DNA of 63,541 nucleotides, filler included, from an uncultured bacterium (GTDB lineage: Bacteria > CAZSTA01): NCBI GenBank assembly GCA_964609495.1. It is 2 parts of 2 records of this genome, joined end to end, with 100 filler letters (N's around TTAATTAATTAA, not from the genome) between each part and the next. Parts side by side here need not be neighbours in the genome. Positions count along the whole stretch, not along the records: positions 32,035 to 63,541 come from CAZSTA010000019.1; 1 more part is not named here. The stretch is one strand, 5' to 3'. Positions 31,935 to 51,165 of this stretch are shown piece by piece. Each line of letters opens with the position of its first letter. Positions within the stretch are counted from its first letter, which is position 1. The notes below the pieces were generated by a model, which was not told where the DNA came from, searched no databases, and saw nothing but the letters and a program-made list of their open reading frames with translations. Both the position numbers and the translations under genes were made by a program.

Positions 31935-32034
31935 NNNNNNNNNNNNNNNNNNNNNNNNNNNNNNNNNNNNNNNNNNNNTTAATTAATTAANNNNNNNNNN
32001 NNNNNNNNNNNNNNNNNNNNNNNNNNNNNNNNNN
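31935..32034. other. Artificial contig linker / assembly gap
   Basis: 100 nt of N with central TTAATTAATTAA (stops in all six frames). Confidence 0.95.
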
Positions 32035-32088
32035 CTACGAACCGGAAATCCACCTTAAATCCTTGTCCAGTTTTCAGGGGAAAGCTCA
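32035..32088. mobile_element. Probable terminal repeat of an IS3-family element at contig edge
   Basis: TGTCCAGTTTTCAGGGGAAAGCTCA ending in CA, abutting AT-rich avs4 coding sequence. Confidence 0.55.
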
Positions 32089-32518
32089 GCCTGTTCTGTT
32101 TTAATACGTGATTTTTTTGATAAGTTAAATTCAGAGGAAAAAGAATTTTGCAAAGAAGTAATTATTGAATATGCGTCCACTCCATTTAAAGTCAAACATT
32201 ATTATTATCAAATCTCCGACGGCACAGAACCATCTATTATTATTTTGCCTGACCTTATAAAGCATTTTCCTAAAGATAAAGAAAACGTCAAATTATTATT
32301 ACTTCTATTACTACTTAATCCATGGAGAGAGATATCAACCTTTGCTACCAGTAGCATTCTATATAACTTATGGAAAATTGATTTCGATGCTGCCCATACT
32401 ATCTTTTTAGGTTATCTCTTACTAAAAACAAAATATAATGAATTAAGAGACGATATCAGAAAAGAAAATCACCAAAAGAATATCTACGAACTTTCAGAAG
32501 TACAGGTTTTAGAATGTT

Positions 32519-33726
32519 TAGTCTTGGAAACAATAGACATATAATTAGCTTATAGTGTGCAAAGTAGCGATTCACTTCCCTACAATTTGGATTAGTGTTG
32601 AGAAGAAATACCAATTAAGCAAGATAAGGAGCGAGATTGCGAAGATTAGATCGATGCGATTTGTTACAGAGAAGTATAGCATTAAAAGCTACTATCTTAC
32701 GCTGGATATATTCGGTGATCCTTCTTACTCCTTTTAGATGCTTCGGCAACTTCAAGAAATCTAAGCTATGCTTCAATTGATCTATAACTTCTTCTATCAC
32801 TACTCTTTTATGATACCACTTTCTCCCTCTCTTCGTCCCATATTCTAAGATACCTTTATCTCTTATGCTCCCTCGTTCCTTCAACTTCTCCCTCTGCTCT
32901 GGGCTCAATTTCAACCTTAAATCTGCTCCTTTCCGAGGATTAGGAGGTATTATCATCTGTATCCCTAGCTCCTCAAACGCTAGCTCATATACTTCATTAG
33001 CATCATATCCTTCATCTCCTATTCCCACTCTCATCTTCCTCCTTTTCCTCTCGGAGATGCGTCTTCGCATCTGGTTAAATAGCTTCTGAGCTATCTTCGA
33101 CTCCCTCTTCTCCGCAGTAGTCCAGAAGAAAGCTATTATTACTCCGTCTCTGGTAACTATAAGATGTAGTTTGTATCCATAGAAGATATTATCATCTGAA
33201 GTAGCTCCCCACTTAGCTAAATGATCCTTGCGGGAGCGAGGGATATCAGTCATATCTATAGCTATTAGAGAGAGATTACGACTGTTGAGGAGACGGGTAA
33301 GGAGGCGACGTAAGAGCTTCTCTAAGAAGGCTTTGACTGACGGATGATGAGAATGATTATTGAGTGTTCTCCGAGAGGGTATCTGAGATAGTCTAACTCC
33401 GAGCAGTTGTCGATAAGTAGGATCATGATAAGCAGTAAGCTTCTGGTGAAGAAGATTGATAGACCAACCTTTGGTAGTAGCGAGAAGTAGCATAAGAGCG
33501 GATTTAGCTACGGTCTCGTCGGATAGGGAGCGACCAGATTTGGGAGAAGAAGGACGCCCCTTTTTTCTGACAAGTTCTCTTCGGTAATTTTTTTCAGTAT
33601 GTCAAAGAGCTGTTTTAGCTTTAACAGTAGCGATCATTCCTTTCTGAGAAAGAAGTAAAATGTTATGATCTATTTTACCATATCTCTGGAATTATCGCCA
33701 CTTTCTTATCATTCTTTCCAACACTA
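32519..33726 (-). mobile_element. ~1.2-kb DDE insertion sequence (IS5/IS982-like)
   Basis: Ends TAGTCTTGGAAA / TTTCCAACACTA (11 of 12 match); flanked by TGTT duplication (or ATGTTT if ends are 1 nt shorter). Confidence 0.88.
32615..33637 (-). pseudogene. DDE transposase with in-frame TGA at codon 12
   Basis: IAIDMT, YGYKLH, GDEGYD, YHKRVVIEEV; frame extends upstream of 33493 to ATG 33637 through TGA at 33602-33604. Confidence 0.7.
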
Positions 33727-35017
33727 TGTTTTATAAAAAAATATGAAAATGAATTAGAAAATGTTGTTTCAAATAAAATTACTTATGCTGAATTGAATGA
33801 TTTAGAAAAGTTAGATTTGGAAACTTTAAAAACGGCTTTCGAGCTTATACCTCTAAAGACAGAAAATGAAGACCATAAAAAATTCTTAGCTATCGTCTTT
33901 CCTGGCTTTTCCAAAAAACTGTTCCAAGATGATGACAGAGATGACTATACGGTGAAGCATAGAATTCTGAATAAATTTGCATGCTTTATTTTAAATTCAA
34001 CAAAAGAAGAAATCGAAACATACTTAAAACCTTTTGTTGATAATTTCAGCAATTCAAAAGAAATGGCTGATTTTTTTCAAGAGTTCATTACTGTAGAGGA
34101 TAGATTAAATAAATATGAAGAATTCTGGGCTGTATGGAATGTTTTTTATGATAAAATAGTTGAGATTTGTAAAAAGCAAAGCTCTCATCATTATACAAAA
34201 GAAATCCTGCATAATTATCTTCTAGCATGGCCATATTGGAAAGAAGATGCAAAAGAATGGCATACATTAAAAGATAGAGAGAAATTATTTTTTAAAAAAG
34301 TCGCGGAAGATATAGGACATCATCCTTCAGTCTTATACTCTCTTTCAAAAATCCTCAATGATATAGGAAGTAATTTTATTGATGATGGTATAATTTGGAT
34401 AAGTAATATCTTACAGAAGAATAACCAATTGATTTCAGAAGAATTAGAGACAAACACCACTTATTATATGGAAAATATTGTTAGAAAGTATATTATGAAA
34501 AATCGTCATAAAATTAAAAAATCCGTACAGCTTAAAAACAAAGTTATTGCTATATTAAACTTTTTAGTAGAGAAAGGTTCTGTGACAGGATATTTGTTAA
34601 GGGAAGATATACCATAAACGGTTCCCAGAAAATAGGGAAGGTTCCTATCCTCTTAGCTCAGAACCGACCAAAATCTAGCTCTTAAATGTCGTCATCTATG
34701 TAATAGTGCGTCAAATACATCTCTCCTTATATGCAATTCTTATATAAACGACTTGTGAATATCATCCCTTACCTCTCCAGCTTTTTCTACTTACCATCTA
34801 CACCTTCTTATTAAAGATCGGATAAAGTTATTTTCCTACATCAAGAACAGTTGGGATGCTGACCCAAGCTGTTCTCGTTTCGTCAAATTGAGTAGGGTCA
34901 CATGTTGTTTGAGAATTGTGGCAGGTCTTGTCCTCACATGTCCGAACGGCAGCGCTTGTATCGCTTATGCATTTATTACCTCCCCCTAACAGAAAATCTC
35001 GTTCTCAAGAGTGAAGC

Positions 35018-35614
35018 ATGCATAAGCGGAAACTCTGGAATAATAAGAAGATATACCCGACTTATGAACCCTACCCCATAAGCCGGGATTTTGAGGGGCA
35101 GGCATATTCAACAAAGGATGCTTCCCATGGACAGTCTATTGACAGCATAAAGGAGCAAGCCCCTGAAGAGCTCTCCCTTATCAGTGACCCATCACCTTCT
35201 GGAGACTGGTTTCCACCACGACCGATAACTCCCGATGAGCAATCTTCTCTTCGTCCCCTGCACCTGCTCAACTCCCTCTTCACCGAGCGTCTCAACTTCC
35301 TGCAATGCGCCCTTGAGGAGCTGCGAGATGCTCAGCATGACCGGGAACGGCTTACTGACAAGGCATTTGAGGAACTCGATTCTGAGATACAAGAATGCGA
35401 ACATTCCTTATCCCTCACCTTGCTCATTGACCCAGAGCAAAAACGGCACCTCCAACGCCGCCTCCTTGAGCTCAAGCGGGAACGCCGCCGGGAAGCCCTC
35501 TTGAGCTGGCGAGACCTTGTCTGGCTCAGAGGTGAAATCAGGAAGCTTCAACGCGAGATCGATACTCTCGGAAGAACAGCCAAGTCAACTAAAAACCGCA
35601 AGGCTCCAACGTGA
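35018..35614 (+). CDS. Hypothetical coiled-coil protein
   Basis: E/R/L-rich helical C-half; GTGA overlap with next gene. Confidence 0.65.
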   Translation: MHKRKLWNNKKIYPTYEPYPISRDFEGQAYSTKDASHGQSIDSIKEQAPEELSLISDPSPSGDWFPPRPITPDEQSSLRPLHLLNSLFTERLNFLQCALEELRDAQHDRERLTDKAFEELDSEIQECEHSLSLTLLIDPEQKRHLQRRLLELKRERRREALLSWRDLVWLRGEIRKLQREIDTLGRTAKSTKNRKAPT

Positions 35615-37551
35615 TCAGTATGTACTTCAAGGAATTCAAGTCCCTCTTGGCAAAGCTCCGCCCGGTCATAGGTGAGCTTGCCGATGCCTTCTGGCTGGCT
35701 ACTCTCCTCGATCCGAGTCAAGAGAAAGATATGCACGCCGTTGCTCAGGCCATGGCAGCCGAACTGCTGAATGAGAGCTACATCGGAAGACACATCCTGC
35801 TTGAGCCACCTCCCAAAGAAACTGCAAAGGGTGAGTACCCGTTGGGGATTATCACCTACGCGGACAAACCTGTGTGTGCCTTCGGCTTGAGAGAAAGCGA
35901 CCTGCCACAACACGTGTTGATTCTGGGTCGCTCTGGTGCTGGGAAAACCAACGTTGGTTACATCCTGGTCTGGAATCTTCTGCGTGCGAGAAAGCCTTTC
36001 CTCGTCCTAGACTGGCGCAAGAACTACCGGCACTTCCTAAACCGGGCTGAAGGGAAGGATATCCTTCTCTTTTCCCTGGGAGAGGAAGAATCGCTATCCT
36101 TCAATCCCCTTGACCCGCCACCTAACCTCATCCAGAGCCAACGGGAAGCATACATGCGGGACATAATCTCTATTATTTGCACGACTTACCTGCCCGGCCA
36201 CCAACTGCTTTCCACCCGGGGAGTCGAATACTTATTCTTAAAAGCCTTAGCTGAGATTGAGGAAGAAGAACCGCTAACCTTCAATGATATTCGCCGATAT
36301 GTAGAGAATTACAAAGCTCATTCCAGAGAAATCGACTGGAAAGTTTCCGCGGTGAATGTTCTGTTCAAATTGACCACCGGTCCTATAGGTCGGCTTACAA
36401 ATTGTCTCGGCATCATAAGCCTTTCGGATATCTTAAACAAGCCAGTCATTCTGGAGCTTGACAGTTTAGGAAGTGAGACTGACCGCTCTCTTTTCACCCA
36501 GACCTTCCTGCTCTGGCTCTACTACTATCGCCTCGCGGAAGGGAAATCGCAAACCTCCAAACATGTCCTGATCGTGGAGGAAGCCCATAACCTATTTCTT
36601 CGCCGCGCCGATAATCGCCAATCCGTCCATGATATGATGCTCAGGCAGATGCGGGACTTAGGGCAGGCACTCGTTTTATTGGACCAAAACCCCAGCCTCT
36701 TGTCTATCCCAGCTTTGGGTAACACAGGAGTAACCATCTGCCTCAACCTCAAGCACGGAGATGACATAGAGGCTGCCGGAAAAGCCTTGACACTGCCGCC
36801 GGAGAACCGAGACTACATCGGCAAGTTGCCCATAGGATACGCCATAGTCAAGGTGCAGGACCGATGGCCAAGTCCCTTCCTCGTTCGCTTCCCCCAGTTT
36901 CAAATTTCCAGTCCTCTGAAGTCACCCTATACTGAAAGAAACCATATTCGAGGTTATTCCCTTAAACAGACTGTGGAGGAACTCCAGTCAGTCCTGAACG
37001 AAGCTATTCGGGCTCTTCCCCAGTCGGACAGAAGACAAAGGAAAGAGCAAGGAATAAGTGCGCAGGAGCGAAGTTTACTGCTCGATATCGTAAATTATCC
37101 TCTGTCAGTTATCACCGAGAGGTTCAAGAGGCTCGGCTGGAGTGCCCATACAGGAACGAAAATCAAATGGAGGTTGTTGGAAAAAGGATTTATTGAGCAA
37201 GAGAAAGTCAGCGTGCCGAAGGGTAGCGTCACTCTGCTCAAGCTTACTGAAGAAGGCACGAGATTTCTTGCTTCATCAGGGATTGAGGTGAAGGCGTTAC
37301 CGAAGAATGCCAGCTTGGAGCATGAGTATTATAAGGAATTGGTGGCTGAGCGTTACCGGGCAAGAGGTTACAAGGTGGAGAAAGAGGTCCTTATAGGTGA
37401 GGGGAAGTCCATAGATTTGGTGGCAATGAAAGGTAATGAGCGAATTGCGATAGAGATAGAGACCGGGAAGTCGGATGTAGAAGCTAACAAGAAGAAATGC
37501 AGAGAAGCTGGGTTTGAGAAAGTAGTTATCGTAAACACCTGCGGACGCTAA
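35611..37551 (+). CDS. HerA/VirB4-like (DUF87) ATPase with C-terminal wHTH and PD-(D/E)xK domain
   Basis: GRSGAGKT, VLDW, LIVEEAH, QMRDLG, DQNPS; C-terminal IDLVA..IAIEIETGKS. Confidence 0.8.
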   Translation: MISMYFKEFKSLLAKLRPVIGELADAFWLATLLDPSQEKDMHAVAQAMAAELLNESYIGRHILLEPPPKETAKGEYPLGIITYADKPVCAFGLRESDLPQHVLILGRSGAGKTNVGYILVWNLLRARKPFLVLDWRKNYRHFLNRAEGKDILLFSLGEEESLSFNPLDPPPNLIQSQREAYMRDIISIICTTYLPGHQLLSTRGVEYLFLKALAEIEEEEPLTFNDIRRYVENYKAHSREIDWKVSAVNVLFKLTTGPIGRLTNCLGIISLSDILNKPVILELDSLGSETDRSLFTQTFLLWLYYYRLAEGKSQTSKHVLIVEEAHNLFLRRADNRQSVHDMMLRQMRDLGQALVLLDQNPSLLSIPALGNTGVTICLNLKHGDDIEAAGKALTLPPENRDYIGKLPIGYAIVKVQDRWPSPFLVRFPQFQISSPLKSPYTERNHIRGYSLKQTVEELQSVLNEAIRALPQSDRRQRKEQGISAQERSLLLDIVNYPLSVITERFKRLGWSAHTGTKIKWRLLEKGFIEQEKVSVPKGSVTLLKLTEEGTRFLASSGIEVKALPKNASLEHEYYKELVAERYRARGYKVEKEVLIGEGKSIDLVAMKGNERIAIEIETGKSDVEANKKKCREAGFEKVVIVNTCGR

Positions 37552-37783
37552 AAGGGAGTGAAGGGTTTTGGCATACCAAAAGCCACTATAGTCAAGATTA
37601 TTTCTCTATTTTTATCACTCGGCTGATGGAATATGTAAATCGTCTCATTGTTGTATCTACCACTTATTTAAGAAATCCCTGATAACATCTTCTAGGGGAA
37701 TGAATTTAGATAAAGCTCGGCTATCAATCTTTTTCTGCCAGAATTATAGAAAATCTTTTATCCGCGCCAATCGCACTGCCTAC

Positions 37784-37797
37784 AAAAAACTTATAAG
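37784..37797 (+). promoter_or_regulatory. Archaeal-style BRE/TATA-like motif before cdc6
   Basis: AAAAAACTTATAAG, TTATAA 20-25 nt before ATG, no Shine-Dalgarno. Confidence 0.4.
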
Positions 37798-37815
37798 TTT
37801 TATCAGAACGACGAT

Positions 37816-38859
37816 ATGCGTATGCGAGCAGACGGTGAACGCATCATACTAGCTAATCCAGACATCCTCAGCGGGAGTTATGTCCCTATTCACGGTCGGG
37901 AAGCCCAGCTCAAGGAGATAAGCCTTTGTCTCCGGCCCATCACGGAAGGCAGAGAGCCGGTGAACTGCTGGTTGCACGGGAAGCCAGGTGTGGGCAAGAC
38001 TGCTACTGCTTGCTGGATCCTGCGAAAGCTTGAGAGTGAAGCAGGTATTCGCGGCGTGTATGTCAACTGCTGGGAGAACCCCACCTTCTTCTCGGTGCTG
38101 GAGTGCATCGCTAGGAAGCTGCGTATGCTTGGAGCTGAGAAACTCAGCACCTCCTTCAAGCTTGAAAGGCTGAAGAGACACCTATCCCACGAGCGGATGG
38201 TCCTCGTCCTTGACGAGATCGATCAGCCCGTGCCAAAGGAACGCAATGCTATCCTCTACAACCTCTCTGACCTTTCCACTGTCGGTCTGATATGTGCCTG
38301 CAACTCTCAGTACGTGTATTTCGGCTTGGAGGAAAGGGTGGAGTCCAGACTTAACCCCGCTCGGATACTTTTCGATGAGTATTCGCGGGATGAGCTATTT
38401 GGCATTTTGGACCAGCGTGCCCAATACGCCCTCGTTCCCCGGACCTACAACGAGGCTCTCCTGCACGTAATTGCCCAGCTTGCGGACGGGGATGCCAGAA
38501 TAGCCATCCAGACCCTGAAGAACGCGGCCTACCTGGCGGAAAAGGAGGATCACGAAAAGATCACGGCCTCGCATGTAAAGTGTGCGTGGAATTCCGCGAA
38601 GGACTTGAAGAAGACCTATCTGCTCCGCAAGCTCACCGATCATCACCGTCTGTTGTATGAATTGATTGCGAAGAACCCAGGTATTTTATCTGGTAATCTG
38701 TGGCGGCTGTATCTGAAGACGTGCGAGGCTAGGGACATTAAGCCGATAGCGGTGAGGACATATTCGGACTACTGCAACAAACTTGCGGAGCTTGGATTAG
38801 TCGAGGCAAAGAGGGCCGCGATCCAGGGGAAGGTGAGGGAGTTCCGCATCGTGAGCTAG
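37816..38859 (+). CDS. cdc6: Orc1/Cdc6-family AAA+ initiator-like protein
   Basis: GREAQL, GKPGVGKT, VYVNCW, VLDEID, ESRL, GDARIAI, C-terminal winged helix. Confidence 0.88.
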   Translation: MRMRADGERIILANPDILSGSYVPIHGREAQLKEISLCLRPITEGREPVNCWLHGKPGVGKTATACWILRKLESEAGIRGVYVNCWENPTFFSVLECIARKLRMLGAEKLSTSFKLERLKRHLSHERMVLVLDEIDQPVPKERNAILYNLSDLSTVGLICACNSQYVYFGLEERVESRLNPARILFDEYSRDELFGILDQRAQYALVPRTYNEALLHVIAQLADGDARIAIQTLKNAAYLAEKEDHEKITASHVKCAWNSAKDLKKTYLLRKLTDHHRLLYELIAKNPGILSGNLWRLYLKTCEARDIKPIAVRTYSDYCNKLAELGLVEAKRAAIQGKVREFRIVS

Positions 38860-38953
38860 ATCGCTTAGTACTTCGCCATCTCCTCAGCGCCAAATTGCCA
38901 ATAAAAGTAGTCAATCCTCTCTAAAATGTTTTTCTATAACTAACCAATGTTTA

Positions 38954-39523
38954 TCACTTAATACCGAGTTCTTTCATTGCGGTGAGAAAGAAATCGAGAG
39001 AATTCCTTACCTTTTCTGTTCCTATCTTCTCAGCTTCTTTGGTATAAAAACCCCTTCTTTCCAGATTCTTGATCCTTTCAAAAGCATCATTAAGGGCAGT
39101 TTCCAGACCCCATTTATTTTCCCCGGCAAAAATAAAGAACCTTGCTATCCCCACTGCTCCAAAGGAATCCAGCTTGTCGGCATCGAACAATATCTTTTCC
39201 TCAATTGTTTTAGGGCTTTTCTGGGAGAAGGTGGAATGGGTTTCTATACATCTTATTATCTTTTCCCTCTCTCTTTTCGAAAATCCCGCTCTTTTTAGAA
39301 ATTCTTCGGGTAATTTTGAGCTGAAATGCTCTTTTTCACTTCGGTCTATGTCATGCAAAAGAATAGCCGGAATAAGTATATTAAGGTCAGGCTTTTCGTT
39401 CTCAGATATCCTCAAAGCATAATCTAGAGTTCTTTGGATGTGATCCCAGCCATGCGAAGGGGATTTGTACTTATGGTAATGTTCCTTCAAAAGCTTCTCT
39501 AAAGACCTAATTTGTGAATTCAT
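38954..39523 (-). CDS. HD-domain phosphohydrolase
   Basis: HGWDHIQR, LLHDI, H, DADKLD. Confidence 0.88.
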   Translation of the reverse strand: MNSQIRSLEKLLKEHYHKYKSPSHGWDHIQRTLDYALRISENEKPDLNILIPAILLHDIDRSEKEHFSSKLPEEFLKRAGFSKREREKIIRCIETHSTFSQKSPKTIEEKILFDADKLDSFGAVGIARFFIFAGENKWGLETALNDAFERIKNLERRGFYTKEAEKIGTEKVRNSLDFFLTAMKELGIK

Positions 39524-39553
39524 AGTTTATTTTAGCTCTTGAAGAAATAAAAG

Positions 39554-40222
39554 TTATATTCCAAAGGTTCTGTTTCTCCTACTGTACTCGTCCAGGACTT
39601 TTTGGATATCCTCCTTAGATAACTCCGGGAAGAATTTGGGTATGAACTCAAATTCAGTATATTGCATCAGGAAAAAAGGTCCGTCCGATATCCTCTTCTC
39701 CTTGGCTGTTCTTACTAAAAAATCGATCGGGGTATTAATCATACAGTTTCTAATTATATTATTGAAGTTCAGTTTCTCTCCTGATTCTATCGTTTTCTTT
39801 ATGGCCCTTAGCAAATCTCGAGTTCCTGAATAACCAAGCAAAAGATTAAATCTCCGCTTGGTATAATCCTTTGTTTCCGATTCAATACTATGGATAGCTT
39901 CTTGATAATAACGAGGTAAGAGATGCCTTTCTCCCGATACGAGAACTCTAATATTATTTTCATGTAACAGGAGATCCTGACTAAAATCTATCAAAGTCCT
40001 AGCCTGCACATCAAGAATAGGCTTTAAATCATTATCGTTCCTCTTTGTAAGGTTGGCATAAGATAAGCCAAAGAATGTGAATTAGTTTATCTTATCATCC
40101 ACTAATATCCATTCTACAAGGCTTCTCGCTGTTCTCGCTGCCTGCTCATAAGCCTCTCTGAGTGACAAATTATGCTTTTTGGCATATCTTCTGTCGCCGT
40201 CAGGGATTAATAAAACATGCAT
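39554..40222 (-). pseudogene. cis-prenyltransferase (UppS-like) with one in-frame TAA
   Basis: MHVLLIPDGDRRYA.., DFLVRTAKEKRISD, RRNRTFG; ATG 40222 overlaps upstream stop (TAATG); TAA at 40082-40084. Confidence 0.82.
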
Positions 40223-40872
40223 TATACTACCTTCTTCTCTATTTTCTTCGCTCTTTTTACCATATCAATTGTCCACATAACTTTCTCGGGTGAGAATTTT
40301 TTGGTGTATTTTACTATATTCTCTTCCGATGTGCACAGGAAAACACACTTTTTGGTATTTTTCTGAGCCATACAGTTTAGTTCAACGGCATAAGTCTTCC
40401 TTTTTGTATAATATTCTTGAGCTCCCGCAAATAAACCAGCCAGCATCCAATCAACGGGATATTTTTGTGGCCCATATCTGTTCTTCACCTCTTGGGCAAA
40501 AGTAGAACTCTCCGCTTCTAACAACATAAAATTCTTGTCTTCATCAACCTTTATTGTCTTGAATTTCCCCCAACCAAAAGCGTTTAATACCTTGCAGGAA
40601 ATATCCACAACATTAACTAGCGTTTTCTTTAGAGGAATACCATGCGTTTGGACAAAATCCCCTCCCATGAACTTGCTGGCCAGGAACTCGGCAATACCGT
40701 AATCAAGGCCAAAGACTTGGGAAAGATGGACATACTCTTTAGCCAAATGGGGAAGGAAATAAAGAACGACACTTTCCTCGCCAAATCTTATATATTCGTC
40801 TTTAAACTTGAGATAATGAAACATCCCAAATTCTTTGAGCAAGTCCAGCATAATCATTCTCCATGATTTCAC
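40222..40872 (-). CDS. V4R-domain ligand-binding protein
   Basis: FGWGKF, AGLFAG, VELNCMAQ....CVF. Confidence 0.75.
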   Translation of the reverse strand: MKSWRMIMLDLLKEFGMFHYLKFKDEYIRFGEESVVLYFLPHLAKEYVHLSQVFGLDYGIAEFLASKFMGGDFVQTHGIPLKKTLVNVVDISCKVLNAFGWGKFKTIKVDEDKNFMLLEAESSTFAQEVKNRYGPQKYPVDWMLAGLFAGAQEYYTKRKTYAVELNCMAQKNTKKCVFLCTSEENIVKYTKKFSPEKVMWTIDMVKRAKKIEKKVV

Positions 40873-40875
40873 CTT

Positions 40876-41601
40876 TTAGTCTTCCAAGGGTTTGATGGAC
40901 AACCCATTCTTATTTATTTCCATAGGGAATATATCCAAGGGATGGTCTACCCTTCTCATTTTGATTACTTCTAATGTTCTGGATACCTTTGTTTCCAACT
41001 CACTGATCTTTATCTTAATCACCCCATCGGAGATAAATTTCAAAACCTCGCTGGCAACTTGGAAATCCTTCCCATCTTCCGAGAGCAACAAAACTGTTTG
41101 ACCTGCCTTCCTTAATTCTCCTGCTAATTCATACAACCCTCTTCTCACATCAGCAAGAGAAGGAGTAAAAAGCGAAAGTTGAGAGCTACGTGCTAGAGGG
41201 GCTTTCCATCTTGGTTTGGTGATATATAAGGACAAGCATGTTACTGTATCCAGAACTAACCTGTCTGGCTTCTTTTTCTTGATAGTATTCACTATGTTCT
41301 TAAAAGTCTTGTCAAAGTTGAAGGGCACCATGGTCAATATAGACAAGTTTTTCTGCCTATCTAAATCCCAACCAAAACCCAATGCCGTCTTTTTAAGACT
41401 TTCCATTGGTTCTTCAAAAGAGATATAGAGGACTTTTTCTTTATTTTTGGCACCTTCCCTGGCAAATTGGAGACCAAAAGTGGATTTACCTGCTCCTGCA
41501 TCCCCAATGACTTCGATCAAAGAACCCTTTTCAAAACCACCTTGCAGTATTTTATCCAAGTATGAAATACCTGTCTTGATTTTTGTATTCATTATTATCA
41601 C
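40876..41601 (-). CDS. Single-domain KaiC/RAD55-like ATPase
   Basis: KTGISYLDKILQGG, GDAGAGKST, YISFEE, LVLDTV, DGVI, LEVIKMR. Confidence 0.9.
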   Translation of the reverse strand: MIIMNTKIKTGISYLDKILQGGFEKGSLIEVIGDAGAGKSTFGLQFAREGAKNKEKVLYISFEEPMESLKKTALGFGWDLDRQKNLSILTMVPFNFDKTFKNIVNTIKKKKPDRLVLDTVTCLSLYITKPRWKAPLARSSQLSLFTPSLADVRRGLYELAGELRKAGQTVLLLSEDGKDFQVASEVLKFISDGVIKIKISELETKVSRTLEVIKMRRVDHPLDIFPMEINKNGLSIKPLED

Positions 41602-41736
41602 AAATATATTTTTGGATTCCGGGCTTTATATATTTATTCGTATCGGCATCACCCGCAAGAGGTGGGCAAAACAGCCAAAAAACAAAGGTTTCAAATCTTC
41701 TTTATGAAAAACGAAAACATTGATGAAATAAGGGTG

Positions 41737-41884
41737 CCAGAGTGGGTGAAATTCGTAATGTCCTGTGTTCAGGTCCACCAACCTGCTCTCCGCAAATATA
41801 TGCTCAAAGAAAAAACTGAAGAAACGAAAACACCAGAGTGGGTGAAGTTCGTGATGTCCTGCGTTCAGGCCCGCCAACCTGCTC
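41737..41884 (+). repeat. Two 52-nt direct repeats, 96-nt period (41737-41788, 41833-41884)
   Basis: CCAGAGTGGGTGAARTTCGTRATGTCCTGYGTTCAGGYCCRCCAACCTGCTC; 5 differences, all transitions. Confidence 0.9.
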
Positions 41885-42046
41885 ACAAAAAAGCTTAAAT
41901 ACTTCTTCCGCCAATTATTTCTTGAGAGGTACGCATTATCTGTGAAAAAAGGGCATTACACTTTTCGCTTCATGCCCGGCAGGGGCATGGCATGAAAAGC
42001 ACAATGCCTACGTGCCTCTCTTAAAGATGTCCGTAGGTATTCACTC

Positions 42047-43240
42047 ATGCCAACTGAGTCTGAGGCAGCAGATAGAGAATTGAACAATGCCAAGAAAAGG
42101 GTCCAAAGGTTAGATACATCCCCCCGCAATCGAAAGGACATCTTGGATTTTGCATCTTTCTGCTTCGCAGAGGGTCTGAGCACTCGCCGTGTGATAAAAT
42201 ATATGAGCACTCTTTGCACTATAGCTAAGCGACTTCGCAAAGAGTTTCGCAAGGTCACTCGTGCGGATATACAAGCGTTAGTAGAAGGAATCGAACGTTC
42301 AGACTATTCTGGTTGGACCAAGCGTGATTTCCGTATTACCCTGAAGAAGTTTTTTCGCTGGCTTCGGGGCACGGAAGAATATCCAGATGAAGTAAAGTGG
42401 CTACGCACAGGCTTCCACGATGAACGCCAGAAGTTGCCAGAAGAATTGCTCACCCCGCAGGAAGTGCAGGCAATGATTGTAGCAGCCCGGACCGCCCGCG
42501 ACAAAGCCTTGATTGCTTCACTTTACGAAAGCGGGTGTAGAATAGGTGAGCTTCGCTCACTTCGCATCAAGCAGTTACAGCAGCACTCCTACGGTTTTCA
42601 AATCACAGTCGAAGGTAAGAAACGCCCCAGGCGACTCTTGCTTATCGCTTGTGCTCCCTACCTTACTACTTGGCTAAATCAACATCCTAGAAGGGAAGAC
42701 CCGAACGCCCCTTTGTGGATTAAATCAGACCACCGTGCCACGCAGCTCTCCCACGCCCGGGTTACGCATATTCTCAAAACATCTGCTAAGCGAGCGGGAA
42801 TTTCCAAGGCTGTGAACCCTTACAACTTTCGCCACAGCAGAGCCACCCACCTTGCCAATCACCTTACTGAAGCTCAAATGAATGTGTACTTAGGATGGGT
42901 CCAGGGCTCTGACATGGCTTCAAGGTATGTGCACCTCTCCGGCCGAGATATAGACCATGTCTTGCTCAAACTCAACCACATACCCACTTCTGAGGAAGAT
43001 AAGGCCAAAGACAACTTCTCCCTAAAGTCCTGCGCAAGGTGTAATCTCAAGAACCCACCAGGCCACAAGTTCTGCTCCCGCTGTGGTGCCATCTTGGACG
43101 AAGAGACTGCCCGAGAGGAAATGAAGAAAAACCTATACAAAAGCGGAGCAAGTGGAGTCATGGAGAGGCTTATTCGGGATGACGAGTTCCGGGCTATGCT
43201 CGAAAGGAAAATCGAGGAACTCGGCAAAGATAACAGGTAG
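42047..43240 (+). CDS. Tyrosine recombinase/integrase with C-terminal zinc ribbon
   Basis: ESGCRIGE, K, FRHSRAT, LGW, RYVH; CARC..FCSRCG. Confidence 0.92.
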   Translation: MPTESEAADRELNNAKKRVQRLDTSPRNRKDILDFASFCFAEGLSTRRVIKYMSTLCTIAKRLRKEFRKVTRADIQALVEGIERSDYSGWTKRDFRITLKKFFRWLRGTEEYPDEVKWLRTGFHDERQKLPEELLTPQEVQAMIVAARTARDKALIASLYESGCRIGELRSLRIKQLQQHSYGFQITVEGKKRPRRLLLIACAPYLTTWLNQHPRREDPNAPLWIKSDHRATQLSHARVTHILKTSAKRAGISKAVNPYNFRHSRATHLANHLTEAQMNVYLGWVQGSDMASRYVHLSGRDIDHVLLKLNHIPTSEEDKAKDNFSLKSCARCNLKNPPGHKFCSRCGAILDEETAREEMKKNLYKSGASGVMERLIRDDEFRAMLERKIEELGKDNR

Positions 43241-43341
43241 AGTGCTTATTCTCGTCCAGTAACTTCTTTTTCTCCTTCATCTGCACGAATAGCAAGCCCT
43301 CTCTCCGACAGCCTAAAATGCTGACCTGCCAATAGGCTGTC

Positions 43342-43527
43342 ATGACAAGCGACTATCGTTCTGATCGTCCCCGCCCCAGAAAATGTAGCAAGTGTATCTG
43401 CGGGATTGAGAATGACAGGGGCATCTGGTGTGCAATACTCAAGAAAATCCCTACTCCAAGGGAGGTCAAACGCTGCCGCCGCTTCTGCCCGAAGGTGATA
43501 CTAGATGATGCTGAAAACGATGCTTAA
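43342..43527 (+). CDS. Small Cys-rich hypothetical protein
   Basis: CSKC..WC..C..F pattern in 61 aa. Confidence 0.45.
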   Translation: MTSDYRSDRPRPRKCSKCICGIENDRGIWCAILKKIPTPREVKRCRRFCPKVILDDAENDA

Positions 43528-43657
43528 GAGAAAGAATTTCAATTCACGCTTCCTCGCAATCACGCCAAACAATCAGCAGGAGATATACCGGGTTTGCCCT
43601 GGTGTTAAGCTCAGGGATTGCCTAGGCTTTACCTAGCGGGGGAGGAGGAGGTATCTT

Positions 43658-44104
43658 ATGAGAGGAGTTATCGAGCAGATTTGGGAGAATGAAACCCGCA
43701 ATGGCAAGAAATACCTTACCGTGCGGATAGACGGCGAACGATACAGCATCTGGGATAAGAAGAACTTCGACGACCTTCAGGAAGGAAAAGAAATCGAATA
43801 TGAATTTCGCCAGAGCGGGAAGTACAAGCACCTCACGGATGTCAAACCAGTAGGGGAAGAAAAAGGTTCAGCGGAGCAAGGAGAGCTAACCTACAGACCA
43901 AGTAACAAGGATATACATATCACCAGGATGAGCTGCCTGAAATCAGCCACCGAGATCGTGGCGCCTGTTTACATGGATATAGAGAGCAAGCAGGAGCTGG
44001 TCATAGAACTCGCCAAGCGGTTTGAACGCTACGTGTTCGAGGATGACCTCGGAGCTTTAACTCAGGAAGATGAAGGTGAGCAGGATGCAGGGAAGAGTGG
44101 ATAA
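43658..44104 (+). CDS. Hypothetical protein, OB-fold-like N-domain (paralogue A)
   Basis: Strong GGAGGAGGAGG RBS; beta-rich N-domain plus ITRMSCLKSA helix. Confidence 0.7.
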   Translation: MRGVIEQIWENETRNGKKYLTVRIDGERYSIWDKKNFDDLQEGKEIEYEFRQSGKYKHLTDVKPVGEEKGSAEQGELTYRPSNKDIHITRMSCLKSATEIVAPVYMDIESKQELVIELAKRFERYVFEDDLGALTQEDEGEQDAGKSG

Positions 44105-44549
44105 AATCTGGCACAACCAGAGGACAGACGGCTCTGAGTACTGGGCACTGTCCATTAACGGTGAGCGTTACACCATTTGGGAAAAGGACCTCATAGCAGA
44201 CATCAAGGAAGGAGACTTGGTCGAGTTTGCCTTCACCTTTTCCGGTCGCTATCGCAACCTCACCGGGATCAGGCGACTGGCCTCTTCAGCCTTCACCACC
44301 GCAGACAAACTCGTTTCAGACCCGACATCCCTGCGAATAACGAGGATGAACTGTCTCCGGACCGCCGCGGAGATGCTCAAGGACACCACCTTGCTCCCAG
44401 AGCAGAAAGTCTCCTTGGCTATAACCATGGCGCAACAGCTCGAAAACCATGTCTTGGGTAACCCGGAGAATTCTGAATTGCAAGAGGTGATGAGACAAAA
44501 GGAAGACGACTGGCCAGACCTTCAAGACCAGCAGGAGGGAGGAGCATGA
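44085..44549 (+). CDS. Hypothetical protein, OB-fold-like N-domain (paralogue B)
   Basis: Aligns with paralogue A (GERYSIWD / GERYTIWE, ITRMNCLRTA); start placed at MQGRV. Confidence 0.7.
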   Translation: MQGRVDKIWHNQRTDGSEYWALSINGERYTIWEKDLIADIKEGDLVEFAFTFSGRYRNLTGIRRLASSAFTTADKLVSDPTSLRITRMNCLRTAAEMLKDTTLLPEQKVSLAITMAQQLENHVLGNPENSELQEVMRQKEDDWPDLQDQQEGGA

Positions 44550-45292
44550 ACGATGAACCTCACTTGTCGGTCAGCCAGCTCAGGACATACATGCAGTGCC
44601 CTTTGCAGTATTTCTTCCGCTACGTCTGCGGAGTGGAGAGACCCCCTACTCCCGAACTCATTCTGGGCCGCACTATCCACGAGACGTTGCACGACAACTA
44701 CCGCCAGAAGATTGAAAGCCATCGCGATTTGCCCCTTTCCCAGATTACGGACATCTTCAGCGACCACTGGGACAGGGAAGTCAAGGAAGCCGAGTTTCAA
44801 GATGATGAGAACTCCGGACACTTCAAGGACCAGGGCATCCAGTTGCCTACCGCCTACCACCAAGGTGTCTCCCCCGTGGTCCAGCCCATTGAAGTGGAGA
44901 AGGAATTCCTTTTTGATACCGGAGTTACCGAACTGCCGCTGAAAGGCTACATAGACCTCATTGACGACCAGCACTACATCATAGACCACAAGACCAGCAA
45001 GCGGAGCTTCCCCAAGGACGCCGCTGATAGGAACATCCAGCTGACCGCCTATGCCTTGGCCCATCGGAAACTTTACGGAGACAAAGAGAGAGGCGTGAGG
45101 ATGGATATAATGGTAAAGACCAAACAGCCCAAGATACAGCAGCTGCAGTCAACCAGAAGTCAGGCGGATATAGACCGCTTCCTGCGCCTCGCTAAGAATG
45201 TCGAAGATGACATAAAGGCTGGCATCTTCTACCCGAATGAGAACTATATGTGCAGTCCCTGTGGGTACAGGGAAATGTGCGATGAGTGGTAG
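44546..45292 (+). CDS. RecB/Cas4-like PD-(D/E)xK nuclease with Fe-S Cys staple
   Basis: LSVSQL..YMQCP, GRTIH, GYIDL, IIDHKT, QLTAY, CSPCGYREMC. Confidence 0.88.
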   Translation: MNDEPHLSVSQLRTYMQCPLQYFFRYVCGVERPPTPELILGRTIHETLHDNYRQKIESHRDLPLSQITDIFSDHWDREVKEAEFQDDENSGHFKDQGIQLPTAYHQGVSPVVQPIEVEKEFLFDTGVTELPLKGYIDLIDDQHYIIDHKTSKRSFPKDAADRNIQLTAYALAHRKLYGDKERGVRMDIMVKTKQPKIQQLQSTRSQADIDRFLRLAKNVEDDIKAGIFYPNENYMCSPCGYREMCDEW

Positions 45293-45497
45293 AAAGTTTT
45301 TACCCCGTGCTGCTAATCTTTCCTTGGCGAAACAATCCTGGTGGGCAGCCTGCCTCTTTTAACCTTTTGAGTGAGGCTTTCTAAGAAGGGGTTATTTTTA
45401 ACTAAAGTCTTTTTTTTCTACTATTACTTACCCCTCTTCCAAGGCTTCCAGGGGCTTCCTGGTGGCTCTCCGTTGATTTTAGAAATGATGTCAAACA

Positions 45498-46058
45498 TCA
45501 ATCTCCATTCCCTATCTCTTCGTAAGGCTTGCTCATCCACTTGATCTCCTCTTCTGTGGGAACCTGGTAGCCGCCCGCAACCCTGCCATTGGTAAGCTCC
45601 CTCAGTGCCCTTGGATCGATCATAGATGCAGGATTGAGTGAAGGAGCAGGCTGGAAACTGCTGGAATATCCTGCAAGCCCTGGGTTGTTGAGCTGGGCTG
45701 CATTGGGGGTGATGTTGAAGCTGACCTTGGCGCCGCCCGGAGGCATGCCATACATCCCCTCAGTGTAGGCAGGAAGGGCAGTTCTTATAGTGTCGTTGGC
45801 TATTGCGTTCATTGTCCTCAGGTTGTTGATGTGCTGGCGGTGTAGCCTGAGTATAATCCACAAAATCCCAGCCGCGAAGATGATGACTAAGATAGCCCAG
45901 TAAATCATCTTCTTCTCTTCCATAGTGAAAGCTTGCGACATCGAATTTGCCAGCGACACGAAAAAGGCAATGACCAAGATAGAAATCAATATCGCTATCG
46001 TCGCGCCGATGAAAATGGCTATGATTTGCCCGGTAGTGAGGCCATTTTCTCTTTCCAT
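45498..46058 (-). CDS. Membrane protein, two transmembrane helices
   Basis: Two hydrophobic stretches; GGAGG RBS. Confidence 0.7.
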   Translation of the reverse strand: MERENGLTTGQIIAIFIGATIAILISILVIAFFVSLANSMSQAFTMEEKKMIYWAILVIIFAAGILWIILRLHRQHINNLRTMNAIANDTIRTALPAYTEGMYGMPPGGAKVSFNITPNAAQLNNPGLAGYSSSFQPAPSLNPASMIDPRALRELTNGRVAGGYQVPTEEEIKWMSKPYEEIGNGD

Positions 46059-46169
46059 TTTGATTTTCCTCCTTTTGTTAGAACTTCGTTCACTTCGTTC
46101 TTATCTCATTTTTTGGCTGAAAACTGGCAGAAATCGTAAAATGACTGATGCACGAACGAAGCCAAAAGT

Positions 46170-47555
46170 TCAGCTCTGCAAAGACTTTTTTGCCTCGTTC
46201 AGGCCCAATAAATAGAACACTTCGTTCAGCCTTCGTTCGTTCACTTTGTTCGTATCGGTTTTGTATCTTTTCGGTAAAATCACCTTGAGTTTATTCAAGC
46301 TCTCCATAATATTGGCAGCCGTCCTGGAACCGAATCCCAAATCTTTCACAAGCTTTTCCCGCGACGCTTCACCCCTGTCGCGAAGGTAGAACCAGACCTC
46401 GACTGGGATATTCTCAGCCTTTATCTTTTTCCTCTCCTTCAGGCCTCTCATTTCGTCAGGTTCTCTTTCTTCTCTCAGCTTTTCAAGGGGAGAAAAGATA
46501 TCCCCGCTCAGCAAGATAAGCCTTGGCTTTTCCATACTTTCTGCTGTCCTGGGTAAAGCTTTAATCCTGCTGGGGTTGACAAGAGGGGTCTGAACCCGCT
46601 GGTTTCTGGGCCCCAGCACCACGACAGCGTCGCCTTCACCTTCAAGAAGATGGCAGTCAAGCTTGGGATGTCCTGAAACCAGGGCACTTTCTCTGGCGTT
46701 CCAGACCTGGAAGATAACCCTGAAGGTCAAGTTCTGCCTGATTACCGGGGAGCCTCCGAAGACGTCCTTGCTCCCGGTCTGGGTTGCCAAAACCAGGATT
46801 ATCCCTTCGCTCCTTCCCCTTTCAATCAGACGCTCCACATAAAAGGTAGCCCTCTTCTTCTTAGCTAAAAGATTGGTGAACTCGTCAAGCACCACCACTA
46901 CCCTCTCGCCTTTCATCACCCGTTTGCTCCTTAGCTCCATCTCCACCTCAAGTTCGGAAAGCATGTGGGTTATGATGTCCGGGTCATCGGTTATCGGGTA
47001 AAGCAGGGGTTTAGTCCCTTCGAAATCAGCGAAGTCCATAATCTTGGGGCTGTAGATTACGAGCCTCGTGCTGCCATCGGTGCGTTCCGCAATCTGCGTT
47101 ATGATACAGCGCAGGAATTCGCTCTTACCGCTTCCGCTGGTACCGAATATTCCGAGATGGGGCGCCACATTAGTCCCCAGCTTCTGCATCACCACTTCCC
47201 CTTTCGGGCTTACGCCCAAGATGATGTTCAAGGGGTTGTCAAGGGCCCTTGGACGGAAGCTCCGCACCCTCTCCGTAACGCCCGTCAGGGTCACCAGTTG
47301 GCGGTGAGGGGAGGGAATCATTAACTCATAGCATCCATTTCCGAGCGTGAGCGAGACTTTAGCTGGCTTAACGCCGAGGGCGACCGCAAGCTCCTCTTGA
47401 TACTTGGCAATGTTCTTGACATCGGGGATACTGCTGTAGATGGGGAAGGTAAGGTGTCTCGGTCCGATGATGGGCTTCCCGACAACGACATTCTTTTCAA
47501 GCAGAGAGAAAACGTCGTAAATCTTATCTATGCAATACAAAAGATAAATGCGCAT
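46170..47555 (-). CDS. FtsK/SpoIIIE-domain ATPase
   Basis: PHLGIFGTSGSGKS, VVVLDEF, RGRSEGIILVLATQ, LLEGEGDA. Confidence 0.85.
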   Translation of the reverse strand: MRIYLLYCIDKIYDVFSLLEKNVVVGKPIIGPRHLTFPIYSSIPDVKNIAKYQEELAVALGVKPAKVSLTLGNGCYELMIPSPHRQLVTLTGVTERVRSFRPRALDNPLNIILGVSPKGEVVMQKLGTNVAPHLGIFGTSGSGKSEFLRCIITQIAERTDGSTRLVIYSPKIMDFADFEGTKPLLYPITDDPDIITHMLSELEVEMELRSKRVMKGERVVVVLDEFTNLLAKKKRATFYVERLIERGRSEGIILVLATQTGSKDVFGGSPVIRQNLTFRVIFQVWNARESALVSGHPKLDCHLLEGEGDAVVVLGPRNQRVQTPLVNPSRIKALPRTAESMEKPRLILLSGDIFSPLEKLREEREPDEMRGLKERKKIKAENIPVEVWFYLRDRGEASREKLVKDLGFGSRTAANIMESLNKLKVILPKRYKTDTNKVNERRLNEVFYLLGLNEAKKSLQS

Positions 47556-47582
47556 AATTTTTCACCTTTTTCTAATCTGTGC

Positions 47583-47611
47583 TTGTCTTAAACCAAAAAA
47601 TCTGATATAAT
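47583..47611 (+). promoter_or_regulatory. sigma70-type promoter pointing against merR-ftsK
   Basis: TTGTCT-17 nt-TATAAT with extended TG. Confidence 0.65.
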
Positions 47612-47727
47612 AGCAAATGGCTAGAGTGGCCAGCGATGGTGCTTTAGCTGGTGGGAGCCTTAGTTCTCCTGGGTAAGGTGTTTCTAAGGCCCCCACCTCA
47701 AAATGAGAGTTGATGATCGGAAAAGTC

Positions 47728-47964
47728 CTAGCCTTCTTCTTTCAAGATTTCTTTTATCTGGGTCAGCTTGAACCCCCTTTCTTTGAGTTCGCGGATTCGG
47801 GCTATCTTTTGCATCGCTTCTTCCCTTCTGAACATTCTCAGCCCTCCAACATACTCGGGTGTCAATATCTCCCTATCACAGTAATATCTGATCGTCGATA
47901 TGGGCAACCCACTCAGCTTCGACAGCTCTCCGATGGTGAGCAGTTCCTTTTTCTCTAAGCTCAT
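47728..47964 (-). CDS. MerR-family HTH protein (excisionase-like size)
   Basis: LLTIGELSKLSGLPISTIRYY..GGLRMF. Confidence 0.85.
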   Translation of the reverse strand: MSLEKKELLTIGELSKLSGLPISTIRYYCDREILTPEYVGGLRMFRREEAMQKIARIRELKERGFKLTQIKEILKEEG

Positions 47965-48020
47965 AGATGTTTCCTTTCAGCTTCTAATGGGCAGTCGATT
48001 TACTGTGGATAGTTTTCTTA

Positions 48021-48049
48021 ACTATACCACAAATTCCTAGAAAAAGCAA
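48021..48049 (-). promoter_or_regulatory. sigma70-type promoter of merR-ftsK
   Basis: TTGCTT-17 nt-TATAGT with TG. Confidence 0.6.
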
Positions 48050-48394
48050 CAGGATTACAAAAAAAATATTCTAACAAATTCACAGCTACCACAAATATAA
48101 AAGCTCTCCAATAAACTGGAGAGCTATCTTTTTGCCTCCCTTCAGGCCCCTTTCAATAGAGCCTATCACTTCAACTGCTGTGATTCTGTAGTCTCTTGCA
48201 GAATATGTTTTTCGAGCAATTTTTCAAAGACAATCTCACCTCAAAATTGGTGTTGGAAATAGATATCTTTAAGTTCACTTATAGTGAGATTTTTCTACCT
48301 TCGGATCCTTACATTTAGCTACAGAGATAGCTCTAAAAGTCAGTTATAATGTGTTTCGATATTTAGGAATATCGAAGTAAATAGGATGTAAAGA

Positions 48395-51163: not shown

Positions 51164-51165
51164 AG

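Follow-up and report, generated by a model that had tools for sequence, protein, structure and literature searches.

Initiators of the Orc1/Cdc6 type are usually counted among the traits of archaea and eukaryotes, whereas bacteria rely on DnaA and on plasmid Rep proteins. The 63,541-nt stretch analyzed here (the window), taken from the metagenome-assembled genome (MAG) GCA_964609495.1 of an uncultured bacterium, raises the question of what a full-length Orc1/Cdc6 gene is doing there. The original prediction, made from the sequence alone, saw at positions 35018–45292 an archaeal-type integrative element that ran with no gap into bacterial flanks, belonged to a cross-domain family and might replicate via Cdc6 and ferry archaeal cargo. 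We find that the gene belongs to a real family, whose members are scattered patchily across many phyla of bacteria and occur in a few MAGs of archaea, with a backbone formed by Orc1/Cdc6 and a Xer-like Zn-ribbon recombinase, and with cargo taken up between the core genes. Archaeal ancestry, followed by a now mainly bacterial distribution, is the best reading of this family. We further propose, with confidence evenly balanced, that a discrete island, able to move horizontally, extends from ~34.8 to ~48.1 kb and belongs to an integrative-plasmid-like family in which Cdc6 would start replication of the free form.

The Orc1/Cdc6-family AAA+ protein (37816–38859, + strand) has lid and winged-helix domains that score above their Pfam cut-offs (Cdc6_lid, 57.7 bits; Cdc6_C, 29.3 bits), and it also exceeds the cut-off of NCBIfam TIGR02928 (189.9 bits versus 181.3). 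Residues 19–342 align onto residues 13–360 of Aeropyrum ORC1 (PDB 2v1u; E 1.2e-27), and the Walker A (GxxGxGKT), Walker B (DE) and sensor-2 GDAR motifs are invariant in 27 sequences. Homologues of 50–81% identity are numerous, and records of bacterial MAGs already list the protein as "Cdc6/Cdc18 family protein". The second backbone protein, a tyrosine recombinase with a C-terminal Zn ribbon (42047–43240, +), matches Phage_integrase (PF00589) at 75.6 bits against a cut-off of 27.1 and Zn_Ribbon_1 at residues 329–349. Its translation shows ESGCRIGEL, FRHSRATH, LGW and RYVH, which we take to be the catalytic residues R, HxxR, (H/W) and Y of a tyrosine recombinase, and a C-terminal CxxC...CxxC. 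As judged by its scores under the equivalog cut-offs of XerD (103.1 versus 329.6 bits) and XerA (98.9 versus 220 bits; E ~1e-28 to 1e-29), it is Xer-like and neither XerC/D nor archaeal XerA.

Upstream of Cdc6 lie p198, a coiled-coil protein that belongs to no known family (35018–35614, +), and a protein that combines a HerA-type ATPase, a MarR-like winged helix and a PD-(D/E)XK nuclease-like domain (35611–37551, +), the stop codon of the former overlapping the start of the latter. The ATPase domain matches DUF87 at 33.6 bits (cut-off 23.2), and the family profile matches Sulfolobus HerA (4d2i) at E 1.5e-15; the best NCBIfam match is CedD, at 81 bits and far under its cut-off. A model of the C-terminal part (predicted local distance difference test, pLDDT, 85.5) retrieves MarR (2e-4) and AF1548/Bax1/Can2-type nucleases (~1e-3) with Foldseek, and residues D602, E615 and E617 are invariant in 20 sequences. 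For p198 no match was obtained in Pfam, PHROGs or PADLOC, a PDB profile search returned coiled-coil noise only, and the ESM Atlas gave no usable match.

Downstream of the recombinase are a Cys-rich Zn-finger-like protein of 61 aa (43342–43527, +), a pair of paralogous OB-fold proteins that end in a helical hairpin (43658–44104 and 44070–44549, +; 33% identical to each other) and a Cas4-like Fe-S PD-(D/E)XK exonuclease (44546–45292, +). Copies of the 61-aa protein, 66–75% identical, stand between the integrase and the OB gene in five related loci (L012, L013, L015, L016 and L018). The first OB protein is modelled with an N-terminal five-strand barrel (pLDDT 75.8); its top Foldseek matches are SSB/HIN/RPA-type OB folds, at a weak E of ~2e-3, and its ESM Atlas look-alikes, hypothetical proteins of tailed-phage clusters, are a lead only. 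The nuclease matches PDDEXK_1 (113.8 bits) and the exonuclease family phrog_69 (2e-26), carries one N-terminal cysteine and a C-terminal C-x2-C-x5-C, and reaches 55.4 bits with TIGR00372, under the cut-off of 65. No CRISPR repeat array was found in 32035–50000 and no cas family among the open reading frames (ORFs) scanned; the gene encodes a Cas4-like nuclease and is not a cas gene. All genes named in the original prediction (Cdc6, the integrase with LGW and Zn ribbon, HerA, the twin OB proteins and the Cas4-like nuclease) are thus where it placed them.

To place Cdc6 among its relatives, we scanned one genome per species (185,579 species) with motifs of the window's Cdc6 family, which gave 75 loci, 41 of them in the clade of the window protein and represented there by 40 tree rows. 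In a quick IQ-TREE analysis of 68 rows, for which the root is unknown and archaeal sampling is biased by the motif-based scan, this clade has a support of SH-aLRT 94 and holds 41 rows, of which one is the window, 35 stem from MAGs of bacteria and 5 from MAGs of archaea. At least 13 phyla are represented among the bacteria: 12 rows are from Planctomycetota, 3 each from Chloroflexota and Acidobacteriota, 2 each from Aminicenantes, Zixibacteria and Thermodesulfobacteriota, and 1 each from Armatimonadota, Bacillota, Pseudomonadota, Binatota, Bacteroidota, Nitrospirota and Bipolaricaulota, with 4 unclassified. The archaeal rows are 3 Aenigmatarchaeota, which are archaeal by binning (the neighbours in one of them, L014, being uninformative on that point), 1 Nezhaarchaeales and 1 Archaeoglobaceae. 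Outside the clade stand 25 rows, cellular Orc1/Cdc6 paralogues of archaeal MAGs and haloarchaeal plasmid or virus proteins, one of them from a MAG labelled as a bacterium, and two identical Thermoplasmatota rows on a very long branch. The Cdc6 phylogeny that the original prediction called for thus separates the family from the other Orc1/Cdc6 proteins; a family found in MAGs of both domains was correctly anticipated, although its weight is bacterial (35 of the 40 rows other than the window).

The basal position of the Nezhaarchaeales and Archaeoglobaceae rows hints that the bacterial clade derives from one archaeal paralogue. The Nezhaarchaeales gene, which begins 137 nt from its contig end, has genes for arginyl-tRNA ligase and A-type ATP synthase beside it and none for an integrase within the 11.2 kb examined; it may be a cellular paralogue of the kind from which the mobile clade arose. 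Two copies of the family reside in a closed 4.3-Mb Aminicenantes chromosome and others on a 1.3-Mb Chloroflexia and a 300-kb Pirellulales contig, so bacterial residence is not generally a binning error. In PLSDB and the phage collections, only haloarchaeal Orc1/Cdc6 proteins (~27–33% identity) and one partial Shewanella phage match were retrieved.

The gene set recurs as a unit, as had been supposed. Within 10 kb of Cdc6, Int is present in 26 of 40 related loci, the HerA-nuclease in 22, p198 in 16 (directly upstream of HerA), an OB protein in 9 and the Cas4-like nuclease in 5. If only the 18 loci that extend 8 kb or more to either side of Cdc6 are considered, these numbers become 12, 14, 11, 5 and 2, respectively; Int or HerA occurs in 16 and both in 10. 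Compact loci share the order p198–HerA–(55–141 nt)–Cdc6–(39–390 nt)–int, so that the usual layout is p198 and HerA-winged helix-nuclease upstream of Cdc6, and Zn-finger, OB and Cas4-like proteins downstream of the recombinase. Cdc6 and Int distances correlate (r 0.55, a value reached by none of 2000 permutations). Integrase homologues of 50–72% identity share contigs with Cdc6 homologues. Those with a named source are from Latescibacterota, Sedimentisphaerales, Aenigmarchaeota, Syntropharchaeia and Hadarchaeales, and several of them are on contigs equal in length to those of Cdc6 matches.

Several observations indicate that the unit moves horizontally. Phyla are scrambled within the Cdc6 clade, and the gene is present in only 3 of 401 sampled Planctomycetota genomes (centre genome included). 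Two planctomycete MAGs, of Phycisphaerae and Pirellulales (L012 and L018), hold in common a 7.3-kb stretch that begins ~215 nt upstream of int and is 86% identical at the nucleotide level, while their Cdc6 genes are only 67% identical, which argues that modules recombine; similarity reaches the contig end, so this pair did not locate the right end of the element. In the window, GC is ~50% in the core genes versus 43.9% genome-wide, and the tetranucleotide distance of 34831–48000 is larger than that of any of the 210 pieces of 10 kb into which the genome was divided. The family thus shows a composition foreign to the host, a scattered distribution and one backbone in genomic settings that are not related, all as expected of a mobile element.

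The same data, together with contigs of four other public runs (X2, X3, X5 and X6, all labelled marsh metagenomes), define the island. One X5 contig matches only from 34830 rightwards and is preceded by 160 unlike letters, so that 34830 is the likely left end. On the right, the foreign composition extends past 45292, where the original prediction ended, to ~48.0–48.1 kb, and a terminator-like hairpin of the flanking dehydrogenase gene lies at 48102–48125; promoter and terminator scans gave nothing above shuffles. The island thus spans ~34830 to ~48100 (~13.3 kb, both ends approximate), and takes in a variable right arm (45498–47964, −) of a membrane protein (45498–46058), an FtsK/SpoIIIE-type ATPase, the second FtsK/HerA-type ATPase of the island (46170–47555), and a MerR-like helix-turn-helix (HTH) protein (47728–47964). 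Related loci do not conserve the genes of this arm. Paralogues of the FtsK-like ATPase, five in number (27–35% identity), lie on other contigs of the MAG (C331, C318, C173, C33 and C10), and this ATPase together with the MerR-like gene gives partial PADLOC matches to mad8 and mad1. One X2 contig joins 50553 back to 47175 via 32 other letters, at a depth of 3.2 that is below the listing threshold. No tRNA gene was found in the window, and only 2 of 25 related loci have one; tRNA genes are not the insertion target.

In this organism the island is not seen inside a chromosome; it is seen on what looks to be a circular molecule. A metagenome scan returned two loci of one 39,297-bp contig (L137) that are 99.97–100% identical to the window over the compared parts. 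Its first 10,550 bases equal window positions 38307–48856 (100%), and, within its final 10,631 bases, the last 6,412 correspond to 32035–38446 with 2 mismatches. The contig therefore starts and ends inside Cdc6 (38307 and 38446), with an end overlap of 140 nt (1 mismatch) that was seen in none of the other fully examined contigs. Because of this overlap, the simplest reading is a circular molecule of ~39,157 bp that contains the whole of the contig carrying the island plus ~7.65 kb; a tandem repeat is less likely. The comparison covered 21,181 bases of the 39,297-bp contig, and the middle part is taken to match 48857–63541, as supported by an identical xylulokinase on record on a contig of that length. 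Outside the island the circle encodes a ParA-like ATPase (60909–61667, −; AAA_31, 224 bits), a PIN toxin (59917–60459, +; PIN, 46.6 bits), an IS3-type transposase and sugar-catabolic genes with an RpiR regulator. Closure into a circle by the 140-nt overlap and the presence of partition and addiction genes give the molecule a plasmid-like make-up.

We propose that the recombinase would insert and excise the island at a short core site, probably under the control of a conserved small ORF and a structured leader upstream of int. Cdc6 would bind a site on the element and set off replication of the free form, working with the co-transcribed HerA motor-nuclease or, where HerA is absent, with a host helicase, since bacteria have no MCM. 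In this scheme, the OB proteins would bind single strands, and end processing would fall to the Cas4-like nuclease. Three lines of evidence favor an initiator: (i) Cdc6 keeps all ATPase and DNA-binding features of its family, (ii) no other backbone protein resembles a replication initiator, and (iii) a hexameric DNA motor with a nuclease is encoded directly upstream in most loci. Cdc6/Orc1 proteins of archaeal integrated elements are likewise presumed to recruit the replisome (PMC6563490). On these grounds we hold it about as probable as not, or a shade less, that Cdc6 is an initiator. The conserved 20-nt non-coding motif TTTTATCCGCGCCAATCGCA (37756–37775, +), found in six of six aligned loci and situated in an AT-rich spacer ~45 nt upstream of Cdc6, may be an operator, a promoter or an origin box. 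A TATA-like box lies between this motif and the gene, ~27–33 nt before the start codon, which has no Shine-Dalgarno sequence.

The following points weigh against a replicating island driven by Cdc6. Replication through Cdc6 was part of the original prediction and is still something that we infer: MCM loading at an origin, as expected of an Orc1/Cdc6, finds no support here, with no genuine MCM in the genome (the best match, 29.5 bits, is to a model that also matches 10 of 10 bacterial control genomes) and no origin-like (origin recognition box, ORB-like) repeats found beside Cdc6. Distances of Cdc6 and HerA correlate only weakly (r 0.25, reached by 96 of 2000 permutations), and L012, the closest relative, as well as 4 of the 18 loci with full flanks, has no HerA within 10 kb of Cdc6, so that HerA is not an obligatory helicase partner. 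Evidence for the circle comes from a single assembly, which may derive from the sample that also gave the window; the gene content of the circle has been read except for 3.4 kb, and it may be replicated by another gene, for example a 372-aa ORF (L137:541–1659) whose match to the archaeo-eukaryotic primase (AEP) small subunit (22.4 bits, cut-off 26.8) is too weak to use. Of the att sites and circular form that the original prediction suggested looking for, the circle was found for the carrier molecule, not for the island: repeat searches of 32035–49500 gave no att repeats above shuffled background (local alignment of 34618–35017 with 47556–48394 scores 20, shuffled mean 21), and neither an empty site nor an excised 13-kb circle was seen in the X2, X3, X5 and X6 contigs, which cannot show rare forms. 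Empty-site comparison with relatives is uninformative, as all 30 share only the domain with the window genome. Finally, in the only experimentally studied case of an element-borne Orc1/Cdc6 that we found, that of SNJ2, the protein acts as an int regulator and is not a proven initiator (PMC10123103).

The last point leads to the strongest alternative, that the island is as described but that its Cdc6 is an SNJ2-like AAA+ switch, activated by DNA damage or another signal, which would turn on the integrase, with replication left to the host or to another gene of the circle. In SNJ2, damage-activated Orf8 (the Orc1/Cdc6) switches on a small antirepressor that relieves int of its repression, and the int promoter contains a critical palindrome (PMC10123103). 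SNJ2 Orc1/Cdc6 is 31% identical to the window protein over 95% of the query. In the family itself, Cdc6 and int co-diverge and are direct neighbours in the closest relatives, and a switch would need no MCM, which the genome lacks, nor HerA, which is dispensable in some loci.

The region upstream of int is compatible with regulation of the recombinase. A small ORF (41704–41898, +) with a duplicated TPEWVKFV(M/L)SC motif is present in five of eight loci examined (window, L012, L013, L018 and L025), as a 31–42-aa version in the relatives; the duplication in the window is a tandem 86-nt repeat. It is followed by two conserved hairpins (41951–42034, +) that end ~12 nt before the int start codon and recur in the 100 nt before int of L012, L013, L015, L016 and L018. 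A covariance model trained on these six sequences, window included, scores the untrained L025 at 85.7 bits and L030 at 23 bits, and gives ~100 bits for plus-strand matches versus ~35 for the minus strand. Over seven sequences, 92.3% of cells are paired, whereas sliding the partners never gives more than 49%, and both sides have changed in 10 of 28 pairs; covariation across seven related sequences is suggestive, not proof. No Rfam family matches the leader. G-U pairs and strand asymmetry both favor an RNA leader or a site in single-stranded DNA over a double-strand operator palindrome, which tells against the switch. Counterparts of a phiH1-like repressor or of Orf7 were not searched for, and none resembling them is annotated. 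The position of HerA, 55–141 nt upstream of Cdc6 in compact loci, suggests a DNA-processing partnership instead. We regard the switch as possible but unlikely.

A second alternative takes p198, the HerA-nuclease and Cdc6 for an anti-phage or anti-plasmid defence system, with Cdc6 as sensor and HerA-nuclease as effector, that rides with an integrase. Anti-phage HerA proteins with solved structures are among the matches of the HerA profile, the nuclease domain is fused to HerA, and PADLOC returns weak matches to mad8 (E 9.6e-9, 33 bits) and HerA (E 6.8e-6, 23 bits). The block also adjoins the remnant of an Avs4 gene (32245–34617, +), of which only the C-terminal ~400 residues are left (PADLOC Avs4 profile positions 1177–1276 and 1296–1569). 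The remnant is split by an insertion sequence (IS) with a DDE_Tnp_1 transposase (32615–33493, −), and on the 39-kb contig it is preceded by the IS3-type transposase (L137:3031–4141). Loose contig ends occur in four runs at ~32088, 32622 and 33727–33734, which suggests that the IS in the remnant is polymorphic.

The genes that the family carries are also mostly of defence type. In relatives, they comprise N6/N4 and D12 methylases, an OLD-type ATPase-TOPRIM nuclease, a MORC-like HATPase, NERD and GmrSD, as well as SNF2 with a sacsin-like ATPase, an SbcC-like ATPase and DUF5677. In the window, a low-GC insert between Cdc6 and int (38954–41601, −) encodes a KaiC-like ATPase (40876–41601), a V4R-like protein (40222–40872), the C-terminal fragment of an undecaprenyl pyrophosphate (UPP) synthase-like gene (39554–40009; first ~76 residues absent) and an HD phosphohydrolase (38954–39523). 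This insert is absent in the closest relatives L012 and L013, where Cdc6 adjoins int. X3 contigs diverge at 40018 and 40322, so that the junction by the UPP-synthase fragment varies between strains; the genome's own uppS-like gene, on another contig (C195), is 33% identical to the fragment. By gene content, the cargo between the core genes is variable and mostly of defence type, not specifically archaeal as first proposed.

No core protein, however, has a full-length match in PADLOC 2.0, and Cdc6 gives only 16–17-bit IetA matches. Cdc6 exceeds the curated Orc1/Cdc6 cut-off with its winged helix intact, and it is tied to and co-diverges with one integrase family, which is the behavior of an element backbone and not of cargo. 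A defence system built on p198, HerA-nuclease and Cdc6 is therefore improbable.

A third alternative is that the circle is an archaeal plasmid mis-binned into a bacterial MAG. The window consists of two contigs, C18 (1–31934) and the whole of C19 (32035–63541), joined by a spacer (31935–32034, N's around ttaattaattaa); the genes for CODH/ACS, carB and argH lie on C18 and so cannot inform on the block, and the continuity with bacterial flanks claimed by the original prediction fails on the left, where C19 offers only 3 kb with the IS-split Avs4 remnant. The MAG itself (349 contigs, 3.78 Mb, 99.45% complete) is bacterial, with a DnaA match of 257.8 bits and no TBP in a profile search of the genome. 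Plasmids are hard to bin, contamination is 4.26%, and several genes of the circle have an archaeal flavor: Orc1/Cdc6 itself, the KaiC-like ATPase (best KaiC model, KaiC_arch_3), a beta-CASP/RMMBL protein that runs off the contig end (61800–63541; best NCBIfam models archaeal aCPSF1 and type VII Cas14), an aldolase matching ADH-synthase models, and the weak AEP-primase match. On the other side, the DDE transposase IS of C19 has 86–92% identical copies on at least five other contigs of the MAG (C102, C61, C30, C14 and C43), the IS3-type piece matches the end of another (C1) at 92.8%, and the right 15 kb of C19 has tetranucleotides typical of the MAG (31st and 80th percentiles of the 210 pieces). 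The circle encodes an RpiR regulator, its sugar-ABC permease has paralogues on seven other contigs, its xylulokinase is at most 53% identical to anything else and has almost exclusively bacteria among its named neighbours, and members of the family sit in the closed chromosome of another bacterium. Residence of the circle in the bacterial MAG is thus favored, though not proven, and we consider mis-binning a little less probable still than a defence system.

For the other contig of the window we note a 10-N scaffold gap (11909–11918) and, between the CODH/ACS genes, a low-GC (35–37%) stretch (16000–21000) with an ATPase that weakly matches MADS3 (17362–18909) and a methyltransferase-like ORF (19538–20929), possibly an inserted defence islet. 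Near its end (28827–31895) is a 1022-aa Eco57I/MmeI-type fused restriction-modification enzyme.

A capsid-less or unrecognized provirus, in which the HerA and FtsK ATPases package the genome, is very improbable. FtsK-HerA ATPases do package PRD1-like viruses (PMC6563490), and both ATPases weakly match phrog_2666, "terminase large subunit" (E 1.9e-7 and 5.8e-10). However, Pfam and PHROGs scans of the block found no capsid, portal or tail family, and no relaxase or type IV secretion system (T4SS) either, in agreement with the original prediction; the core families include no conserved genes of structural size, and a scan of IMG/VR yielded no relative (43 pattern matches, none confirmed). An assembly chimera at the block borders, suggested by a window of two joined contigs and a MAG in 349 pieces, can be dismissed, since contigs of the four other runs bridge 34617/35018, 38859/38954, 41601/42047 and 47964/48395 without differences (for example X2 record 2, 33812–35421; X2 record 4, 36555–40079; X5 record 21, 40764–45005; X5 record 23, 45841–48429) and an independent 4.6-kb metagenome contig (L115) spans 36424–41011; the block within C19 is not an assembly artefact.

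Returning to the island with a replicative Cdc6, a more specific version holds that these mainly bacterial integrative plasmids replicate via Orc1/Cdc6 and a HerA-type motor-nuclease, or a captured host helicase, in place of MCM, while backbone slots exchange defence genes. We put this forward tentatively, as a rather unlikely proposal; if true, an Orc1/Cdc6–HerA replication-initiation module would be of a kind not described for bacteria. More generally, a full-length Orc1/Cdc6 clade is carried along with an integrase of its own in no fewer than 13 phyla of bacteria and in some archaea, in a family that carries defence genes and has a structured, previously unrecorded int leader. Confirmation would mean either Orc1/Cdc6 initiation without MCM, or Orc1/Cdc6 proteins as general switches of mobile-element life cycles, as in SNJ2, and both possibilities are relevant to the passage of replication machinery and mobile elements from one domain to another.

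Finally, we compared the island with known systems. SIR2-HerA, DUF4297-HerA and archaeal HerA-NurA share with it a HerA-clade ATPase and a nuclease. In the island, in contrast, the PD-(D/E)XK nuclease and the winged helix are fused to HerA, the partner is the coiled-coil p198, HerA is linked to Cdc6 and an integrase, and no Sir2, DUF4297 or NurA family was found in Pfam and PADLOC scans. Actinomycete integrative and conjugative elements (AICEs) consist of int, xis, rep and the FtsK-like TraB. They resemble the island as small elements with an integrase, a replication-type gene, an FtsK-type translocase (here 46170–47555) and a small HTH protein, and without relaxase or T4SS, but the plasmid TraB model gives only 18.4 bits, the FtsK-like arm is not conserved, and the initiator is of another type. 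SNJ2 shares a full-length element-borne Orc1/Cdc6 and a tyrosine integrase, whose expression in SNJ2 is tightly controlled (PMC10123103); it is a haloarchaeal virus (Betapleolipovirus) with virion genes, and in the 1.6 kb compared it has no HerA, OB or Cas4 module.

The closest parallel is with integrated elements of archaea (thaumarchaeal integrative-conjugative and cryptic integrated elements, ICE/CIE, and the "dark matter islands"), in which integrase, HerA-like ATPase, Orc/Cdc6 and MarR-type winged-helix proteins are the commonest families (PMC4158269); the combination of Int, HerA-like ATPase and Orc/Cdc6 is typical of such elements, in support of the original prediction. Our literature search, which had subscription journals and supplements outside its scope, found Orc1/Cdc6-bearing elements described in archaeal work only, and none in bacteria. 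Compared with the archaeal elements, the island family has mostly bacterial hosts without MCM, a Cdc6 that forms its own clade, a HerA fused to a nuclease, an int leader of its own and an integrase that is Xer-like, its assignment to the SSV or pNOB8 type not being supported.

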